Under the pieces are notes generated by a model. That model saw nothing but the letters and a program-made list of their open reading frames with translations. It did not search any database and was not told where the DNA came from. Positions 1,404 through 9,789 of a stretch of 64,000 nt of DNA are shown here, in pieces. Made by a program: the position numbers and the translations under genes. Source of the DNA: Candidatus Lustribacter sp. (lineage in GTDB: Bacteria > Vulcanimicrobiota > Vulcanimicrobiia > Vulcanimicrobiales > Vulcanimicrobiaceae); NCBI GenBank assembly GCA_965277805.1, contig OZ255842.1, forward strand, positions 3,232,001 to 3,296,000. Direction: 5' to 3'. Positions within the stretch are counted from its first letter, which is position 1, and each line of letters starts with the position of its first letter.

Positions 1404-2557
1404 AGTCGTTTTCCGCTTACCACCAGGTCGTCGCGATGGATCATTTCGTCGCGGCCGCGATAGCCGAGGATGGCCTCGATCTCGCTGCTGCGATGCCCGG
1501 CGATCGCTTGCGCGTCAACGCTCGAATACGCCGAGAGCCCGCGCGCGAGCTCGAGCCCGGCACGGCTGCGCACAATAACCGCATCACCTTGCTCGAAGGT
1601 TCCCTCAACCGCAATTACGCCCGCCGGCAGCAGGCTCGTACCGCGCGCGAGCGCGCTGACCGCGCCGTCGTCGACGACGAGCGCGCCCGTGACGTTGACC
1701 GCGCCCGCGATCCAGCGTTTGCGCGCCGTGCCCGGTTCCGCATCGGGAATGAACCACGTCGCGCGCGCGCCCGCTTCGATCGCCGCCAGCGGGTGCAGTT
1801 CTTCACCGCGCGCGATCACCATGCGGCAGCCCGCCGCCATCGCGATGCGCGCGGCCACGAGCTTCGTCACCATTCCGCCCGAACTGTAGCCCACGGGCGC
1901 GCGTCCCGCCATCGCTTCGATCTCGGGAGTGATGTCGCGAACTTCCGGCAGATGCCGCGCGGCAGAATCGCGCCGCGGATCGGCCGTATATAAACCGTCG
2001 ACATCGGAGAGCAGCACCAGCGTGTCGGCGCTGATCATCTGCGCGACGCGCGCCGCCAAACGGTCGTTGTCGCCGAATCGGATCTCGGCCGTGGCGACCG
2101 TATCGTTCTCGTTGATTACCGGCACCGCGCCGAGCGCGAGCAGCTGTTCGATCGTGGCGCGCGCGTTCAGGTGACGGCTGCGCTCCTCGGTGTCGTCGGG
2201 GGTGAGCAGAATCTGTGCGACGCTGATGTCGTGACGCGCGAGCGCTTCGAGATACGCGTGCGCGAGACGGATCTGTCCGGCCGCCGCCGCGGCCTGCTTC
2301 TCTTCGAGCCGTAGCGTACGGCCGACGAGACCGAGATGACGCCGTCCGACCGCGATCGCGCCCGAAGAGACCAGCACCACGTCTTGTCCGCGGGCGCGGC
2401 AGCGCGCAATGTCTTCAGCGAGCGCCGCCAGCCAATCGCGGCGGATGTCGCCCGACGCTTCGTCGACCAGCAGCGCCGAGCCGGCCTTGACGATCAGGCG
2501 GCGCGCGGAAGCGAGCCCGGTGGACGCCGCGAGCTCCGCGGCAGGACGCGACGTCAT
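1400..2557 (-). CDS. proB: Glutamate 5-kinase with PUA domain
   Basis: [34 protein letters not shown]-terminal IHRDDL. Confidence 0.97.
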
Positions 2558-3405
2558 CAGCCGGCGCCGTCGAGATGATTGCGCGCTTCTTCGACCGCGC
2601 GCGCCAGCACCGAGCGCAGCTTGCCGTCTTCCATCACGAGCAGCGCGGCGATCGTGCAGCCGGCGGGCGTCGTCACGTCGTCGCGCAACGCGGCCGGATG
2701 ACGATCGTTCTCCTGCACCATCACGGCGGCGCCGAGCACCGTCTGCGCCACCAGCGTCATGGCGACGTCGCGCGGCAAACCGATCCGCACGCCCGCGTCG
2801 GCCAGCGCTTCAATGATGAGGTAAACGTAGGCGGGACCGCTGCCGCTGATTGCGGTGACCGCGTTGAGCTGACGCTCTTCAATCGTGATGCACAACCCGA
2901 CGGCGCCGAAGAGGCGCTCTGCAATCGCGAGGTGCGCCGCCTTCGCGTGGCTGCCGCCGGAGATCGCCGTCATGCCCCGCCCGACGAACGACGGCGTGTT
3001 GGGCATCGCACGCACCACCGGATTCGCCGTGCCGAGCGCCGCCTCGATGCGCGCGATCGAGACGCCGGCCGCTACCGAGATCACGAGCGCCTCGGGCTCC
3101 AGGCCGGCGGCGACGAGTTCGCGCAGCGCCGCCTCGAGCTGGGCCGGCTTCACGGCCAGCAGCAGCACGTCGCTCCCGGCGGTCAGCTCCGCATACGAGG
3201 TGTGCGCCGCAATGCCGAACTCGTTGGCAACCATCTGCGCGGACGCGGCGGATTTGGTCGCGGCCCAGACCGCATCGAGGGGAACGCCGCTACCCAGCAC
3301 GCCCCGCAGGAGCGCGCCGCCCATCGCCCCGGCACCGATAATGCCGAGCCGCGAACCGGGTGCGAGGGCCGCAGCGGGCCCGTCAATCGAGATTTCCACG
3401 ACCAA
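2557..3405 (-). CDS. proC: Pyrroline-5-carboxylate reductase
   Basis: [33 protein letters not shown] motifs. Confidence 0.95.
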
Positions 3406-3522
3406 TTACGGTTCTGGGCGCTCGAGTTGGGTTCCCGGGAAGCAATGACGGCTAGCGGGGAACGCCAGGCTGCACGCCGGAACTCCAACACGGAATTCAG
3501 TTCCGGGAGGACGCCTTTCGTC

Positions 3523-5415
3523 ATGCAAGAGCTGTTCAAACAATACCTCGACCAAAATATCTCGCGGGGCAAACTGCTCCAAGGCCTCGGCGCCGTCGGC
3601 CTGAGCGCTGCAGCGGCGAGCACGATCGCCGAATCGCTGGCGCCGGTGAACGTCAGCGCGGCGACCGCGGCGGGCGCGGTCCGCAACCTGCGCGATACCG
3701 GCGGCACGCTCTTCGTGCAACAGCTCAAGGCCGCGGGCGTGAAGTACTACTTCTTCAACCCGTCGACCGGCGATGCGCCGATCTTCAACGCGATCGCCAA
3801 CGAGCCGAGCATCCAGCTCATCAAGGGCATTCAAGAAGGCGTGGTCATCGCGATGGCCGACGGCTACTCGCGGATGTCGGGCAAGACCGGCGTGTGCACG
3901 ATCGCCAACGTCGGTTTGCCCAACGGCATGACGCAGCTCGTCAACGCCTACAAGGACCGCATACCGCTGCTGCTGGTCATCGCTGCCTTCGGAACGCAGC
4001 AATCGGGCCGCGACGGCCCGCAAGACTACGATCATCAGGAAACGATGCTGCAGCCGCTGACCAAATGGTATTGGATGGCGGAATCGGGCGCCGCCATTCC
4101 GGAGACGACGCGCCGCGCGATGAAGTTCGCCACGACGCCGCCGGGCGGCCCGGTGTTCGTCTCGATTCCCGATGACATCCTCGGCCAGCCCGCCGCCGCC
4201 GACATCTACGACCAGTCGGGCTACGACGTGCCGGTGAAGATTCGCGCCGATGCGTCCGACGTCGAAAAAGTCGCGCGCATGCTGATCGAAGCGAAGAACC
4301 CGCTGCTCTCGGTCGGCGACGAGATCACGATGTGCAACGGCGAGGCCGAAGTGTTGCAGCTGGCCGAACTGCTCGGCTTGCCGGCGGCGGGCGGCGGCGA
4401 ATTCGGCGTTTGGTCGAAACCGTTCCCGACGATGCACCCGCTCTACCTCGGGCCCGTGCTCAAGAACATGAAGTACCCGGGCGACGTCGACGTGCGGCTG
4501 AACATCGGCAACCAGTACGGCGAGGTTTCCGGGCCGAACACGACGCTGATTTCGATACGCCGCGATCCGACGAGCCTCGGCCGCGTGGGTCCGGTCGACA
4601 TGGGGCTCGTGGCCGACAGTAAACTCGCCGCTGCCGATCTCGTTGCGGCGGTGAAGAGCATCGCGACCGCCGATCGTTTGCGTCAGATCGCCGCCGGCCG
4701 TCTCGCGCGCACCAAAGCCTACACCGACGGCATGAAAAAGATGCGCGAAGCAATGCTCACCGGGTTCCCGAGCGCCGACGGCGGGCCGGTAACGCTCGAA
4801 CGGCTGGCGTACGAACTCGAGAACGGGCTCGAGAAAGATACGATCTACGTCAACGACACCGACTCCGGCAAGAAGATGGACGTCTTCATGACCTTCGGCG
4901 CCGGCGGAAAAACTTACGTCGGCAACGGTCCGAACATTCTGGGCTGGGGACTCTCGGCCGGCGCCGGCGCCAAACTTGCGCGGCCGGATTCGCCGGTCGT
5001 CGCGATCCTCGGCGACGGCGCGTTCCTCTTCGGCGGCCCGCAACCGCTGTGGAGTCAAGCCCGCTATAACATTCCGGTCTTGAACATCGTGCTGAACAAC
5101 CGCAGCTACAACAACGAGCGCAACCGCATCTGGACGTTCGTCTCGGGACAGCAATTCAAATCCGGTCTCGACATGACGTGCTACAACGGCTCGCCCGACG
5201 TCGACTTCGTCAAGGCGTCGCAAGCATTCGGCGTCGAGGGCGAGCTGGTGAAAGAGCCGGGCCAGATCAAGGCCGCGATCGCGCGTGGGAAACGCGCGAC
5301 CGCAGAAGGGAGACCGTACTTGCTGGAAGTTCTCATTCAACGAGACGGCGTCGGCGCCGGTTCGACCTGGTATCCGCCGTTCTCCGTTGCGGCGATGCGG
5401 ACGCGCCATGTATAA
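3523..5415 (+). CDS. Thiamine-diphosphate-dependent enzyme (benzoylformate decarboxylase/acetolactate synthase family) with signal-like N-terminal extension
   Basis: IQEGVVIAMADGY (catalytic Glu) and GDGAFLFG...LNNRSY ThDP/Mg motif; GGGAGG RBS at 3505-3510 before ATG 3523. Confidence 0.9.
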   Translation: MQELFKQYLDQNISRGKLLQGLGAVGLSAAAASTIAESLAPVNVSAATAAGAVRNLRDTGGTLFVQQLKAAGVKYYFFNPSTGDAPIFNAIANEPSIQLIKGIQEGVVIAMADGYSRMSGKTGVCTIANVGLPNGMTQLVNAYKDRIPLLLVIAAFGTQQSGRDGPQDYDHQETMLQPLTKWYWMAESGAAIPETTRRAMKFATTPPGGPVFVSIPDDILGQPAAADIYDQSGYDVPVKIRADASDVEKVARMLIEAKNPLLSVGDEITMCNGEAEVLQLAELLGLPAAGGGEFGVWSKPFPTMHPLYLGPVLKNMKYPGDVDVRLNIGNQYGEVSGPNTTLISIRRDPTSLGRVGPVDMGLVADSKLAAADLVAAVKSIATADRLRQIAAGRLARTKAYTDGMKKMREAMLTGFPSADGGPVTLERLAYELENGLEKDTIYVNDTDSGKKMDVFMTFGAGGKTYVGNGPNILGWGLSAGAGAKLARPDSPVVAILGDGAFLFGGPQPLWSQARYNIPVLNIVLNNRSYNNERNRIWTFVSGQQFKSGLDMTCYNGSPDVDFVKASQAFGVEGELVKEPGQIKAAIARGKRATAEGRPYLLEVLIQRDGVGAGSTWYPPFSVAAMRTRHV

Positions 5416-5929
5416 ACCGGCGCTCTTTCTCTTCGCGCTCGTGGCGGCGCTCGGCGCCGCCGCGCTGCCGCTGCGCGCACAGCAAGACAACAACCCGCTG
5501 CCGCCCGGCGACGGCCGCGACATTGTCGCGGTCACCTGTTCGCAATGTCACGGCCTCAATGCACTCACGCAACTGCGCCAAGGCGCGAAGGCGTGGCGCC
5601 ACCAGATCTACGACATGATCGAGCGCGGCGCGCAGGTCTCGCCGAGCGAGATCGACGTGATGGTCAACTATCTCACAACGCACCTCGGTCCGGGCATCCC
5701 GTATCCCGGTCCGTCGCCCGCGCACGTCGATTTGCCCGCCGGCACCGGGGCCGACATCGTGCAGAGCCGGTGCAGTCTCTGTCACGGCGTCGACCGCGTC
5801 GTCGCGACCAAACGCACGCGCGCGCAGTGGACCAGCATCGTGAACCGGATGGTCTACCTCGGCGCCCCGCTCAGCGCCGGCCAGCAAAAAACCGTCCTCG
5901 ATTATCTAAGCACGAATTACAGTAACTAA
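5408..5929 (+). CDS. Secreted di-heme cytochrome c (two tandem domains)
   Basis: Sec signal MYKPALFLFALVAALGAAALPLRA; CSQCH and CSLCH, each followed by W...M...GA...YL; ATG overlaps end of the upstream gene. Confidence 0.88.
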   Translation: MYKPALFLFALVAALGAAALPLRAQQDNNPLPPGDGRDIVAVTCSQCHGLNALTQLRQGAKAWRHQIYDMIERGAQVSPSEIDVMVNYLTTHLGPGIPYPGPSPAHVDLPAGTGADIVQSRCSLCHGVDRVVATKRTRAQWTSIVNRMVYLGAPLSAGQQKTVLDYLSTNYSN

Positions 5930-6891
5930 GGCTTCGCTACGCTCGGATCGACGAGCTCGCGCGCCGGGAACGGATGCGCGATGAGTTTGTATTTTGCCGC
6001 GAGATCGATCAGCGGCTGAATCTCCGAGAGGTGCAGCACCGTCCCCAGTTCGGGGCGGTTCGCGTGCTCGATCGTCTCGAGCGTCTGGCCGGTGAACGCG
6101 GCGAGCATCGCGGCGGTTTCGGCATGATGCGCGTTCGTGTACGCGGTCGATTCGGCCACGGTGCGCGCGAAGGCTTGCACGAGATCGGGATGTTTGGCCG
6201 CCCAATCCGACGATGCGAACCAGCCCGAGTACGGAAATTCGGGCGCGACCGCGTCCATGGCGGGCGCAAGAATACGCACGTTGCCCGATGCGAGCGCGGT
6301 AGCCAGCGCCGTGTCGTTCATCAGCGCGGCGTCGACGCGGTGCAGTTCGATCGCCGCTTGCGCGGCGCTGATCGGGATCTCGACGAACTTCAGCGTGCGT
6401 GAATCGCCGCCGTGTTTGTCGACCCAGTTCGAGATGACGAGCGTCGAGAGCGAATCCAGCGCCGGCGTCGCGATCGTTTTGCCGTTGAGATCCTTGCCGC
6501 TGCTCGCCGTCGAGTCGTGCGCGACGACGAGTTCCGAAAACGGCGTCTTGCTGTAGTACGTGCCGGCCGGGGCCAGCAGCGTGAAGCCGACGCCGCGCAC
6601 GTGCGCGCTCATCAGCGTGACGAGGTTGGAAAGGCCGATATCGAACGAGCCGGCCAAGACGGCGGCGGCGATCGCGGCGCCGCTGCCGGCGCGCTCGATC
6701 TGCACGTCGATTCCGGCTTTGGCGAAGAGCCCGGCCTTTTGCGCGTAGAGGATCGGCGTCGCATCGTCGGTCGCGATGGTCTGGATGCGCACGGTTTGCA
6801 GCGGCGCCGCAGCCACGCGGGCCGGCACTGCGGTCAGCGCGACGAGAAGCGCGAGCAAAGCCGCGCTGAGGGAGTTGCCGGCACCGAACAT
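5926..6891 (-). CDS. ABC substrate-binding protein, SsuA/THI5/NMT1-like
   Basis: Signal peptide, GLFAKAGIDV, KDLNGKTIA, QPLIDLAAKY family pattern. Confidence 0.85.
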   Translation of the reverse strand: MFGAGNSLSAALLALLVALTAVPARVAAAPLQTVRIQTIATDDATPILYAQKAGLFAKAGIDVQIERAGSGAAIAAAVLAGSFDIGLSNLVTLMSAHVRGVGFTLLAPAGTYYSKTPFSELVVAHDSTASSGKDLNGKTIATPALDSLSTLVISNWVDKHGGDSRTLKFVEIPISAAQAAIELHRVDAALMNDTALATALASGNVRILAPAMDAVAPEFPYSGWFASSDWAAKHPDLVQAFARTVAESTAYTNAHHAETAAMLAAFTGQTLETIEHANRPELGTVLHLSEIQPLIDLAAKYKLIAHPFPARELVDPSVAKP

Positions 6892-6904
6892 ACCGGCCCC
6901 TTTG

Positions 6905-8158
6905 TCACCGCGCCGGGCGGTACCCGTCGGTCAACGTTTGCAAGAAGGCGATGATGTCGAGTTCCTGCTGTGGGCTCAGCGCCGGCGCGGCCCCGGCTTT
7001 ACGGTCGAACGGGGCATCGGCGATGTCGAGATTAGCACGCGCGGACGGCGGCAGATCGTCGGGCGCACCGTGACGGTAGATGCGCTGCGGACGCGTGCTG
7101 CGGAAATCGTAGAAGTCGAGCACCGCTTGCAGCGTGTGATAGACGCCGTTGTGGAAGAACGTGTGACGCGTTGCGACGTTGCGCAAGGTCGGCGTCAGAA
7201 ACATTCCGCAGTACGGCGCAGCACGCTTCATGTCGGTGCGGATCGGACCGCAGATGCCGAGATCGAAGTAGCGTGGATTGCGGTTTGCGGCGAGCGTCAT
7301 GTTCCGCGGCGCACCGAGCGCTTCGAACTGATGGTCGGTGAAGAGCGGCGGCAATCCGTTCGCATCGGGGCGGTCGAGATGACAGGCGGCGCAATTCGCG
7401 CCGTTGGGATCGCGAAAAAGCGTATAGCCGCGCGCTTCTGCCGCCGAGAAGCGCGCCTTGCCCTCGAGCCACGCATCGTATTTGCTCGAGTACGGATGGA
7501 ACGACGGATCCTCGATTTGGTAGCGCGCGACGGCGAACAACGCCTCGCCCACGGCCATGCTGGCGCGATCGAAGATTCGCGGGCCGAACAGCTGCGCGAA
7601 GCGAGCCGCATACGGCGCGCGGCGCAGCTTTTCCGCGACGCGTCCGACGCTGCCGCCGTTCATCTCGAGGGGGTTGAGCACCGGCTCGAGCGCCTGGCTT
7701 TGCAGCGTGTTGACGCGGCCGTCCCAGAACAAGCCGCCCTGCGGCACGAGATTCTGTGCGCTCTGCGCCGTATTCTGCGCGCTCTTCACCGCAAGCGCCG
7801 GCGCGTTCGACGATAGCGGCGAGGGAGTGGCTTCGTTCTCCGCATCATCCGGACCGATGCTGAAGTTCGGCTGCCGTTCGAGATACATCAGCGACGGAAT
7901 GGCGCGCACGCCCGCCGGTACGGCCAAATCGGCGGGCGGACCGTACGCGTGCTGCGGGCTGTGACACGACGCGCACGACAGCGCGCCCGACGATGACAGC
8001 GTCGGATCGAAGAACACAAGCCGGCCCAATTGCGCCATCGCGGACAACGGCGCAACCTCCGGACGCATCAGGCGAACCGGGTGCGGATTGCCCCCGTCCG
8101 GACGCACCGCGCTCAGCGCAACGGCAACGACGCCCGCGAGGGCGAGCGTTCGCGTCAG
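6905..8158 (-). CDS. Di-heme cytochrome c peroxidase/MauG-like protein
   Basis: LGRLVFFDPTLS, CASCH, FWDGR, CAACH, TPTLRNVA, FFHNG; start uncertain (GTG 8107 or CTG 8158). Confidence 0.88.
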   Translation of the reverse strand: MTRTLALAGVVAVALSAVRPDGGNPHPVRLMRPEVAPLSAMAQLGRLVFFDPTLSSSGALSCASCHSPQHAYGPPADLAVPAGVRAIPSLMYLERQPNFSIGPDDAENEATPSPLSSNAPALAVKSAQNTAQSAQNLVPQGGLFWDGRVNTLQSQALEPVLNPLEMNGGSVGRVAEKLRRAPYAARFAQLFGPRIFDRASMAVGEALFAVARYQIEDPSFHPYSSKYDAWLEGKARFSAAEARGYTLFRDPNGANCAACHLDRPDANGLPPLFTDHQFEALGAPRNMTLAANRNPRYFDLGICGPIRTDMKRAAPYCGMFLTPTLRNVATRHTFFHNGVYHTLQAVLDFYDFRSTRPQRIYRHGAPDDLPPSARANLDIADAPFDRKAGAAPALSPQQELDIIAFLQTLTDGYRPAR

Positions 8159-9789
8159 CGCGCGGCTACCGGAATTCCGGTTCGCGGGCTGAGCAAGAGC
8201 TTCGGCGTGCGTCCGCCGCTACGGAAGTCGAACATATCCATGATCGAACCTGCGCTCGCATCGAACGAACCCCCTCCGAGGCGCTCGCCCTTGAGCCAGT
8301 TGTCCTCGATGAAGCGCACGACCGACGCTTGCGAAATGCGCGCGTGGGAAACGGCGTTGCGTTTCGCCCAGGGCGAGATCACGAGAAACGGAATGCGCGT
8401 GCCGGGTCCGCAGCGGCCGTTCACCGGCTTGCCGTTCACCCCCGGCAGCGCGGGGCCCGATCCGCAGGTGCCCAGCCCGTCGAGTTGATCGGCCTGATCG
8501 TACGACGGGCTCGTCGCTTTTACGGACGCATGGTCGTACCAGCCGTCCGAATCATCCCAAGCCAGAATGATCGCGGTGTCTTTCCATTCCGGCCGTTGTT
8601 CGAGAAAGTTCACGAGCGTGACGATTGCCGTTTGCTCGTCGAGCGGATCGGAGTAGCCCGCGTGGCCATCTTGAAACGCGGGCGCTTTGAGGTATGAGAC
8701 GGCCGGAAAATTACCGGCCTTCACCGCGGCATAGAAATCGTTGAGGTCGTAGTTGTGGTTGGCCGGATCCTTCGTGCCGTCGGGATCGTTCGAGTGCCCG
8801 ATCGCTCGGACCGTCAGCGGACGCGCATGTGTCGAGTTGACCGTCGTCGGGTAGTAAGCGAACCAGTTGTGGTGCGGGATGTAATCCGTGACGAGCGCTG
8901 CAACGGTCGTGGAATAGGTCGCCCGCTTGCAGCCGGTCGTGCCGTTCGGATTCGATGCCGTAAGATCGAAGCCGGCCATGAAGCCGCCCCACGTAATGCC
9001 CGCGTCGTTGAGCAGATCGCCGATGTTCTTCCCAGCCATGAACACATCGTCGGTTTGACTCGAGCACGCATCGGAGGCGGGATCGACGTCGTTGATCATC
9101 GTCAAACCGCCTTGACCATCGTTGACGTAGTACGATGGTGCGGCAACGGTCGCAGGCTCTTTCGTCGTGTCGATGGCGAGCATGCCGTTGGTTTGGCCCG
9201 AGATCACGTTGAGTGCGCCGGGCGTCGAGGGACCGTAGACGTCGGTGTAGGCGTTATCGCTCATCGCATAATGCTGCGCGTATTCCCACAGCGCCATCAC
9301 CGTGTTGCCGTCGAAGTAGCCCATCACTTGACCGCGCGAACCGAACGCGCCCACGCCGCCGCTCGTGCCTTTGCCCGTATATTTCGGAAAGAGATCCGCC
9401 TTGCCGCCATCGGTCGCGAGCTGTTCCGCCGTGTACGCGTGGTTCTGATCGGCGGTGTTTGCCTGGGTCCGGTCGAGGCGGAACGGATTGGCAGCGTCGG
9501 CGCCGTTACCGGTATTCGTCAAATTAGGGTTGTAGCGCAAGAACTTCGCCATGGCTAAGTTGTTGACGGCCGGCGTCCCCGGTGCGGCGCGGAACACGGG
9601 CTCGTCGGGTGGATTGGCGGCCTTCGGATACGTCGCGAAGTAGTGATCGAACGAGACGTTCTCACCGTAGAGAACGACGAGGTGTTTGATCGGCGTCGCG
9701 GTCGAGGATCCCGATTGCGCCGCGAGCGGCACCGATCCCGCTGCGGCAAAAAATGAAAGAACAACGCACAATGCGACGACGCGCTTCAT
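8155..9789 (-). CDS. Secreted phosphoesterase, AcpA acid phosphatase/phospholipase C family
   Basis: Signal peptide, IKHLVVLYGENVSFDHYF, YGPSTPGALN, DDSDGWYDH, GPGTRIP. Confidence 0.92.
   Translation of the reverse strand: MKRVVALCVVLSFFAAAGSVPLAAQSGSSTATPIKHLVVLYGENVSFDHYFATYPKAANPPDEPVFRAAPGTPAVNNLAMAKFLRYNPNLTNTGNGADAANPFRLDRTQANTADQNHAYTAEQLATDGGKADLFPKYTGKGTSGGVGAFGSRGQVMGYFDGNTVMALWEYAQHYAMSDNAYTDVYGPSTPGALNVISGQTNGMLAIDTTKEPATVAAPSYYVNDGQGGLTMINDVDPASDACSSQTDDVFMAGKNIGDLLNDAGITWGGFMAGFDLTASNPNGTTGCKRATYSTTVAALVTDYIPHHNWFAYYPTTVNSTHARPLTVRAIGHSNDPDGTKDPANHNYDLNDFYAAVKAGNFPAVSYLKAPAFQDGHAGYSDPLDEQTAIVTLVNFLEQRPEWKDTAIILAWDDSDGWYDHASVKATSPSYDQADQLDGLGTCGSGPALPGVNGKPVNGRCGPGTRIPFLVISPWAKRNAVSHARISQASVVRFIEDNWLKGERLGGGSFDASAGSIMDMFDFRSGGRTPKLLLSPRTGIPVAAR

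Follow-up and report, generated by a model that had tools for sequence, protein, structure and literature searches.

A putatively exported thiamine diphosphate enzyme encoded with a di-haem cytochrome c in a Candidatus Lustribacter genome

Enzymes that use thiamine diphosphate (ThDP) to oxidise an enamine intermediate include the pyruvate oxidases PoxB and POX and pyruvate:ferredoxin oxidoreductase, which release an acid, an acyl phosphate or acyl-CoA, and whose electrons leave via flavin adenine dinucleotide (FAD) or iron-sulfur (Fe-S) centres in the cytoplasm or at its membrane face. To our knowledge, ThDP enzymes in general are treated as cytoplasmic, and their oxidative members use FAD, lipoamide or Fe-S clusters. 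Among the periplasmic dehydrogenases, SorAB consists of a catalytic subunit exported through twin-arginine translocation (Tat) and a small c-type cytochrome acceptor which is exported by the Sec pathway and encoded alongside it, while in quinohaemoprotein amine dehydrogenase (QHNDH) a di-haem domain serves as the internal electron acceptor. The present work concerns a pair of overlapping genes in the genome of Candidatus Lustribacter sp. (Vulcanimicrobiota, or Eremiobacterota), which lies in a stretch of 64,000 nucleotides (contig OZ255842.1, positions 3,232,001 to 3,296,000 of the forward strand) referred to here as the window. The pair encodes a ThDP enzyme (P0001) and a di-haem cytochrome c (P0002).

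The reading of this pair that is favoured here, at a probability of roughly 55%, is that of a ThDP-dependent dehydrogenase of the periplasm with its own cytochrome c as the electron acceptor, in which export, the reduction of the haem, the direction of the reaction and the hydrolysis of the acyl-ThDP are parts that we infer. A broader proposal, put forward more tentatively and at slightly less than even odds, is that such pairs constitute a new respiratory class of exported ThDP:cytochrome c oxidoreductases, in which the enamine would be oxidised directly by haem c without a flavin or Fe-S relay, and which would form a large and diverse clade with partners of one to three haems in several phyla from soil, peat and freshwater.

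Conservation of the gene pair

An earlier reading made from the letters alone (the sequence-only reading) described a two-gene unit with an 8-nucleotide overlap, flanked by genes on the opposite strand, and the coordinates agree with it: both flanking genes are on the opposite strand, and the overlap is as described (Table 1). The same reading gave the enzyme a partner with a Sec signal and two CxxCH/Met domains, and this is borne out by the conservation of the partner, in which C44, C47, H48, R57, W63, M70, C122, C125, H126, W141 and M148 are invariant in 44 of 44 sequences, and in which A24, the last residue of the putative signal peptide, and Q25, which follows it, are kept in 97% and 100% of 74 aligned cytochrome sequences; the hydrophobic N-terminal leader ends in A-x-A/Q. 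The protein is made of two copies of a module, LP-G-G-+-D-x-V-x-x-x-C-x-x-C-H ... R ... W ... M ... G-A ... Y-L. It exceeds the cut-off of the Pfam family Cytochrome_CBB3 and, judged by its CxxCH motifs, distal Met residues and signal peptide, is a class I-like His/Met c-type cytochrome. The SorB model NF052246 matches it twice, at 67.9 bits, under the cut-off of 93, which leaves it outside the SorB family proper. Among solved structures in the PDB, a profile search returns the QHNDH di-haem domain across both haem sites (1jju, E 2.8e-10) and the SorB subunit of SorAB (2blf_B, E 2.1e-7), both of which we take to be dedicated electron acceptors of periplasmic dehydrogenases.

The two genes form a conserved unit. 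A word-indexed homologue search yielded 1156 homologues of the enzyme at E<=0.001 among 7999 candidates scored; the 120 listed are mostly of about 630 amino acids, and nearly all of them have the same N-terminal extension. In the best 80 of 181 encoding stretches, taken at one genome per species, a homologous cytochrome gene is detected downstream by tblastn in 79, and in the sole exception (L080) the sequence ends 30 nucleotides past the ThDP gene. The start of the cytochrome gene, as picked by a heuristic, lies within -49 to +19 nucleotides of the stop of the ThDP gene in 77 of these 79 loci, the exceptions being L004, at 2,054 nucleotides, and L070, at 204 nucleotides and with only the second haem domain open. 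Two CxxCH motifs are present in 73 of the 79 partners; of the other six, two are truncated where the contig ends, three read CxxxCH at the second site, and the last is L070. The CxxxCH partners (L069, L076 and L077, from Hyphomicrobiales/Rhizobiales bins) read C-G-T-A-C-H at that site. The loci come mostly from uncultured Alphaproteobacteria (Xanthobacteraceae, Stellaceae, Reyranella, Bradyrhizobium bins, Acetobacteraceae and Rhodospirillales), with four from Eremiobacterota (Vulcanimicrobiota) and one from Binataceae.

The pairing extends well beyond these orthologues. An exhaustive profile-free search gives 16,302 matches at E<=0.001, and among the best 150 of them are full-length relatives at 29-44% identity which align from residue 1, leader included; leader-bearing representatives are only 24-47% identical to one another. 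One divergent branch was surveyed at 80 metagenome loci, 39-78% identical to its representative P0132 (the search alignment had six rows), where cytochromes were sought with a profile built from the alignment of the window cytochrome. An adjacent cytochrome gene on the same strand occurs in 58 of the 80, upstream in 30 and downstream in 28, while 16 loci are cut by contig ends too near the gene and 6 have no match within 450 bp, which gives 58 paired loci out of 64 that can be evaluated. Among these last, L090 and L106 do show a match at a distance of 0.5-1.1 kb, and L144 has another CxxCH open reading frame directly upstream. The 58 adjacent cytochromes carry one haem motif in 43 cases, two in 10 and three in 5. 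The di-haem partner named in the sequence-only reading holds for the window copy and for most orthologues and is not general in the wider clade, where one haem motif is the commonest count (43 of 58). The survey of gene neighbourhoods which that reading had proposed bears the association out, in 79 of 80 genome loci and 58 of 64 evaluable divergent loci; the pairing is far beyond chance, and an obligate pair is supported. Inherited synteny alone is unlikely to account for a pairing that persists through changes in the order of the genes and the number of haems.

No conserved third partner gene, chaperone or transporter was found when open reading frames around the loci were clustered and when 72 upstream and 72 downstream neighbours were scanned with Pfam. 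The commonest neighbours are transglutaminase/DUF2126 genes (10-12 of 72 upstream) and Rieske or ring-hydroxylating oxygenases (9 of 72 downstream); others are glyoxalase-type dioxygenases (6 downstream, 3 upstream), TctC (5 of 72 upstream) and VanA_C (4). These families name no substrate, because they are few and come largely from related Xanthobacteraceae bins; as neighbours in a minority of related loci they offer a hint of a possible link to aromatic catabolism. The clade itself carries no functional annotation.

In the window, the stop codons of the cytochrome gene and of the convergent gene for an NMT1/THI5-type binding protein overlap by 4 nucleotides; a gene of the latter family is the downstream neighbour in only 4 of 72 loci. 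The second gene downstream of the pair, at 6905-8107 on the minus strand, belongs to the di-haem cytochrome c peroxidase/MauG family (CCP_MauG, Pfam, 116 bits), which is absent from the 25 families met most often directly beside the pair at the other loci. Beyond it, at 8155-9789 on the minus strand, is a gene for a 544-residue exported phosphoesterase of the phospholipase C/acid phosphatase family (Pfam PF04185, 217 bits). An Rfam search over 3300-6100 returned no riboswitch and no other RNA, and a promoter and terminator scan, which was uninformative, returned no terminator and one promoter-like site on the minus strand within the cytochrome gene.

The leader of the enzyme and the question of export

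Because the Pfam domains of the enzyme begin at residue 59, about 56 residues precede the catalytic core, which accords with the roughly 55 extra N-terminal residues noted earlier. This leader is absent from the cytoplasmic relatives: matches below about 290 bits lack it, are of about 555 amino acids and begin at the core. Within the family it has a well-defined pattern. Arg stands at position 15 in all 44 exported-type relatives and at position 16 in 86% of them, and S/T-R-R is present in 77 of 80 genome loci and in all 73 metagenome loci whose N-terminus is present. Twin arginines (RR) also occur in 26 of 26 distant full-length relatives inspected, for which the leader pattern is M-R/K-E-L-x-x-x-x-L-x-x-x-x-S-R-R-x-F, with R15, R16 and F18 invariant in an alignment of 24. 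The NCBIfam Tat-signal model TIGR01409 matches about residues 13-32 in six of nine family leaders tested, with one score above the cut-off of 16.7 bits and four at 14.1-15.9 bits, and the other near-best NCBIfam matches of the family leaders are likewise models of Tat leaders. Membership of the family in the Tat class would accordingly be described, from these sequences, as near threshold by models and clear by motif.

The host is equipped for such export. Its genome encodes TatC, two TatA/B proteins, a cytochrome c assembly protein and two haem-copper oxidases, and a crude regular-expression search of it finds 93 RR-type leaders on plausible open reading frames, some of them false, from which it follows that the host uses ordinary Tat signals. 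At C1:4663784-4667184 of this genome a CcsA/ResC-like cytochrome c assembly gene, tatC and tatA/B lie on the same strand within about 3.4 kb.

The window copy departs from the family pattern, since its leader reads ...NISRGKLLQGLGAVGLSAAAAS..., with one Arg in S-R-G and no twin. The Tat-like motif claimed in the sequence-only reading is in this respect a property of the family, whose homologues do carry RR (77 of 80 and 73 of 73 loci) as an exported enzyme would have it, and is not found intact in the window copy, which has S-R-G and matches no Tat model. Such substitutions are not confined to the window: the 120 nearest homologues listed comprise 88 with RR, 31 with a single Arg (Gly in 19, Ala in 6, Ser in 5 and His in 1) and one that is truncated. 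Besides the window copy, its close kin L001, L003 and L018 read S-R-G; L002, the basal copy from Eremiobacterota, has retained RR. In a FastTree phylogeny of 83 rows, rooted on three divergent leader-bearing relatives (L018, whose best segment starts late, was left out), the window copy groups with L001, L003 and L002 in a single clade (support 100) embedded among alphaproteobacterial sequences, with the RR-bearing L002 basal and the S-R-G copies derived. Such a topology would fit a single transfer into Eremiobacterota, after which the second Arg was lost. An orthologue at E<=1e-120 is present in 2 of 301 sampled genomes of the phylum, the host included and both of the same genus, with at most four candidates scored per genome. 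The public record of L018, a metagenome-assembled genome 99% identical to the window, has a ThDP match of 1,891 nucleotides at about 6001-7891, where the best tblastn segment starts from 6698; that record probably contains a one-base indel, either an assembly error or a frameshift.

Several observations made on the leaders weigh against export of the window copy or against the Tat assignment, and hence against the favoured reading. The window leader matches no Tat model: Pfam returns nothing at E<=0.01, TIGR01409 gives no match, and the only NCBIfam match is formate_TAT at 10 bits (E 0.86). The Pfam model TAT_signal is insignificant even in the RR-bearing homologues and cannot be used as support, because it appears in just two of the six tested, at E 6-9. 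The n-region, moreover, is unusually conserved for a signal peptide. The single Arg of the window lineage makes export of the window copy less certain than that of the family, to judge from the sequences.

The first of these circumstances bears on an unlikely alternative, namely that in the window lineage the enzyme stays in the cytoplasm after the loss of the second Arg and that the local pair is uncoupled or decaying. The distribution of S-R-G, with RR kept in the basal L002, the missing TIGR01409 match and the frequency of single-Arg leaders (31 of the 120 closest homologues listed) would all fit such a loss, but both genes are intact and under purifying selection, with ratios of nonsynonymous to synonymous substitution (dN/dS) of 0.07-0.25 for both within the single-Arg clade, and the cytochrome retains the signal peptide, the two haem motifs and the two Met residues. 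In addition, the h-regions of the single-Arg leaders are slightly more hydrophobic, with a mean Kyte-Doolittle (KD) value of 1.61 (n=32) against 1.46 (n=88) for the RR leaders, and the single-Arg leaders carry less positive charge, although this comparison ignores kinship and its p-value, computed on related sequences, overstates the difference. Huang and Palmer (2017, PMC5539426) report that greater hydrophobicity, the direction seen in these leaders, is able to suppress substitutions of the twin-arginine motif.

A further, very unlikely alternative retains the chemistry of the favoured reading and changes only the fate of the leader, which would be an uncleaved signal anchor that tethers the enzyme to the outer face of the cytoplasmic membrane. 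Rieske proteins have an uncleaved signal anchor of this kind. In the AlphaFold model residues 1-40 have a predicted local confidence (pLDDT) of 78-87 and form three helices, and this, together with the conservation of the n-region, raises the possibility of a structural element or an uncleaved anchor, which again weighs on the same side as the points above; the h-region, which is also unusually conserved, consists of just 12-16 uncharged residues and is only weakly hydrophobic, and it is followed by a variable, low-confidence linker (residues 42-50, pLDDT <50) with Ala-x-Ala, as at a cleavage site, both of which speak against an anchor. A leader that binds a chaperone and an uncleaved anchor would each fit the model.

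The host genome, of 5.5 Mb, contains about 25 paralogues of the ThDP superfamily by tblastn, a high number, and only the window copy combines this leader with the C-terminal tail described below. One paralogue, L165 (G000:C1:2456964-2458913), with 649 amino acids and 24% identity to P0001, bears a canonical Tat leader (VDRRAFLGG...) that matches TIGR01409 at 24.3 bits, above the cut-off; it lacks the C-terminal tail and has no cytochrome c gene within about 4 kb. Its sequence indicates that exported ThDP enzymes without a cytochrome partner may also exist.

Catalytic core, predicted contact and proposed reaction

The enzyme exceeds the Pfam cut-offs for PF02776, PF00205 and PF02775 and thereby belongs to the ThDP decarboxylase/acetolactate-synthase superfamily. 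The catalytic Glu and the GDG...NN motif are kept, as the sequence-only reading had stated: E105, D498, G499, N525 and N526 do not vary across the 68 aligned relatives, and in a phmmer alignment to benzoylformate decarboxylase (BFDC), whose numbering is verifiable from the mutant chains H70A and S26T, Glu47 aligns with E105. That reading had also held the Ser and His of BFDC to be lost. This is right for the His residues, both of which are absent (His70 aligns with Ala128, and His281 with Asn330), and needs amending for Ser26, which is replaced by Thr82 with the hydroxyl kept; Glu28 aligns with Asp84. The pocket residues A460, L461 and F464 of BFDC align with N531, E532 and W537, and the pocket is polar and charged because the invariant motif SYNNERNRIW supplies these three residues. 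The polar residues N531, E532 and R533 suggest a hydrophilic 2-oxo acid as the substrate.

Compared with 24 leaderless sequences, 44 leader-bearing sequences have two appendages specific to their clade, the leader and a C-terminal tail, in which R607, G609, W616 and A623 are kept in at least 86% of the 44 exported-type sequences and whose positions are mostly gaps or other residues in the 24 cytoplasmic relatives. An AlphaFold model of the enzyme from a 68-row alignment, which supersedes an earlier one from 20 rows (pLDDT 64), has a pLDDT of 92.1 and a predicted TM-score (pTM) of 0.88. A Foldseek search of the PDB with this model places 4-hydroxybenzoylformate decarboxylase (7orx, E 1.2e-40), BFDC with formolase variants, BbmA (8x3x) and a benzaldehyde lyase at the top, with the FAD-binding glyoxylate carboligase only at rank 50. 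The nearest solved sequence is BbmA (E 6.5e-53 over residues 60-609), followed by BFDC (E about 1e-37). No NCBIfam equivalog cut-off is reached: the best match, to the PRK08327-type model NF006203, scores 215.2 bits against a cut-off of 456, the benzoylformate decarboxylase model NF005485 scores 194.2 against 493, and the pyruvate oxidase model is not among the 25 best matches listed. In a protein atlas the matches were ThDP clusters with generic names only. Sulfoacetaldehyde acetyltransferase had been a candidate function in view of the SorB-like cytochrome and the NMT1-type neighbour; it is rejected because its model scores 181.8 bits against a cut-off of 676 and because the binding protein gene is a neighbour at so few loci.

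The two proteins were co-folded as enzyme residues 52-630 and cytochrome residues 26-173, each with its alignment and with two haems included. This check, which the sequence-only reading had proposed, passes its controls: the interface score ipSAE is 0.86, 0.87 and 0.84 in three runs (median 0.86), and 0.00 in three controls with unrelated proteins. In calibration, 58 of 80 solved complexes attain the ipSAE mark, as do 2 of 110 mismatched pairs; these figures apply only roughly here because own alignments were used and haem was included. Between runs at least 92% of contacts coincide, and the partner has a pLDDT of at least 89. On the cytochrome side the predicted interface comprises residues 42-48, 68-79 and 130-147, of which the first two segments hold the haem 1 motif, M70 and the RGAQ loop; the enzyme contributes residues 309-318, 400-415, 450-454 and 538-549, as well as 608-619 of the tail (608-616 and 619). 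Residues 538-549 directly follow the helix aligned with the active-site helix of BFDC, next to the residues aligned with A460, L461 and F464, and the model in this way places the haem-1 domain beside the segment that corresponds to that helix. The model supports binding of the two proteins to each other. No solved ThDP-cytochrome complex is known to us on which the model could have drawn, and the cytochrome profile search of the PDB returned none.

According to the favoured reading, the enzyme would fold and take up ThDP and Mg in the cytoplasm, and would then be exported in folded form via Tat by its N-terminal leader. Outside the cytoplasm it would bind the di-haem cytochrome c from the overlapping gene, which would itself have been exported via Sec and loaded with haem. 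A C2-carbanion/enamine would arise from an aldehyde or, with decarboxylation, from a 2-oxo acid, and haem 1, docked beside the active-site helix, would oxidise it in two one-electron steps, with haem 2 relaying the electrons to the cytochrome c pool and the oxidases of the respiratory chain. The acyl-ThDP would be hydrolysed to a carboxylic acid, and neither a flavin nor an Fe-S centre would take part. There is chemical precedent for the oxidation of the enamine and for the hydrolysis: ThDP enamines are readily oxidised by one-electron acceptors, in pyruvate:ferredoxin oxidoreductase via a radical, and in PoxB the acyl-ThDP is hydrolysed to the acid.

To the points already set against this reading must be added four more. 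The nearest folds and sequences (4-hydroxybenzoylformate decarboxylase, BFDC, HKA synthase and benzaldehyde lyase) are non-redox and flavin-free; we know of no transfer from ThDP to haem c; the co-fold contains one ThDP protomer, whereas ThDP active sites form at dimer interfaces; and at three evaluable divergent loci, L101, L159 and L160, no cytochrome c gene was found nearby. The first two are also what recommends an improbable alternative in which the exported protein is a non-redox ThDP decarboxylase, lyase or carboligase and the cytochrome has a structural, sensing or protective role or acts on the product; it can draw on non-oxidative relatives and on the lack of any precedent for ThDP-to-haem transfer in open-access papers and preprints, but it has to accommodate a His/Met c-type cytochrome, for which we know of no non-redox role as an obligate partner and whose solved relatives are the electron acceptors of periplasmic dehydrogenases, a co-fold that sets the haem 1 motif against the enzyme near the active-site helix, and a pairing that survives changes in gene order and haem number.

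Table 1. Features of the gene pair and its flanks (positions in the window; residue numbers refer to the protein named)
Feature	Position	Strand	Basis or remark
ThDP enzyme gene (P0001), 630 aa	3523..5415, stop included	+	Translation; Pfam TPP_enzyme_N, M and C; ATG 3523, TAA 5413-5415, GGGAGG ahead of the ATG
P0001 N-terminal leader, residues 1 to about 50	3523..3672	+	n-region MQELFKQYLDQNIS, single Arg, Ala/Gly-rich h-region, Ala-x-Ala stretch
P0001 degenerate Tat motif S14-R15-G16-K17-L18-L19	3562..3579	+	Most relatives have S-R-R-x-L/F-hydrophobic
P0001 PYR domain, TPP_enzyme_N (PF02776), residues 59-172	3697..4038	+	Pfam; includes cofactor Glu E105
P0001 central domain, TPP_enzyme_M (PF00205), residues 247-371	4261..4635	+	Pfam; nearest folds are flavin-free decarboxylases/lyases
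P0001 PP domain, TPP_enzyme_C (PF02775), residues 466-603	4918..5331	+	Pfam
P0001 GDG...NN, residues 497-526	5011-5100	+	Inside PP domain
P0001 family motif SYNNERNRIW, residues 528-537		+	Inside PP domain; family-invariant
P0001 C-terminal tail, residues 607-630, RDGVGAGSTWYPPFSVAAMRTRHV	5341..5412	+	Specific to the exported clade
8-nt overlap ATGTATAA	5408..5415	+	Cytochrome ATG within last codons of ThDP gene
Di-haem cytochrome c gene (P0002), 173 aa	5408..5929, stop included	+	Translation, Pfam, NCBIfam, PDB profile search; ATG 5408, stop 5927-5929
P0002 Sec-type signal peptide, residues 1-24	5408..5479	+	Read from sequence; ends L-R-A before Q25
P0002 haem 1 motif C44-S-Q-C-H48	5537..5551	+	Invariant 44/44; likely sixth ligand M70 at 5615-5617
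P0002 haem 2 motif C122-S-L-C-H126	5771..5785	+	Invariant 44/44; likely sixth ligand M148 at 5849-5851
proC-like gene (pyrroline-5-carboxylate reductase)	2557-3405	-	5' flank of the pair
NMT1/THI5-type periplasmic binding protein gene	5926-6891	-	3' flank, convergent with cytochrome gene

Comparison with known systems

The sequence-only reading had regarded the coupling of such an enzyme to a cytochrome as undescribed, and the literature agrees as far as it was covered: a search of open-access papers and preprints found neither an exported ThDP enzyme nor a ThDP-cytochrome c pair, and the passage returned from PMC3305326 concerns a thiamine-biosynthesis lipoprotein rather than such an enzyme. 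If the favoured reading is true, the periplasmic dehydrogenases gain a further cofactor and Tat gains a new class of cargo; organic acids or aldehydes would supply electrons directly to the cytochrome c pool of uncultured bacteria in soil and peat, and cells would burn 2-oxo acids or aldehydes outside the cytoplasm. The clade concerned is large, with leader-bearing full-length relatives down to 29% identity among the best 150 of the 16,302 matches, and the single-Arg leader of the window copy provides a natural case in which to study the tolerance of Tat for loss of the twin arginine.

In its fold the enzyme is closest to BFDC and 4-hydroxybenzoylformate decarboxylase (1bfd, 7orx), with which it shares the three-domain ThDP architecture (Foldseek E about 1e-40, target-normalised TM-score about 0.86, about 24% identity), the cofactor Glu and the GDG...NN motif. 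BFDC, however, is cytoplasmic, non-oxidative and without a partner, whereas the family of P0001 adds the leader and the C-terminal tail and has replaced the catalytic His and pocket residues of BFDC. BbmA (8x3x), a ThDP-dependent HKA synthase, is the best solved sequence match and also a top structural match, but it shows no leader in the alignment and, by PDB titles, has no cytochrome partner. PoxB, POX and pyruvate:ferredoxin oxidoreductase supply the chemical precedent for an oxidative ThDP enzyme, although the nearest folds of P0001, unlike PoxB and POX, are flavin-free.

Parallels to the pair as a whole are found among periplasmic dehydrogenases that do not use ThDP. The whole cytochrome has its best solved relative in the alpha subunit of QHNDH (1jju, 1jmx), with the profile at 35-143 aligned to chain residues 3-124; there the di-haem module is one domain of a polypeptide about 490 residues long, with a quinone as catalytic cofactor, whereas P0002 is a separate protein of 173 amino acids. 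SorAB (2blf) would share the architecture of the pair, an exported catalytic subunit with a cytochrome acceptor, and SorB matches the second haem domain of P0002, but the catalytic subunit of SorAB is a molybdenum enzyme and SorB has one haem. A Tat-exported catalytic subunit combined with a Sec-exported cytochrome c is a known architecture of periplasmic dehydrogenases, to which ThDP would be new as the catalytic cofactor.

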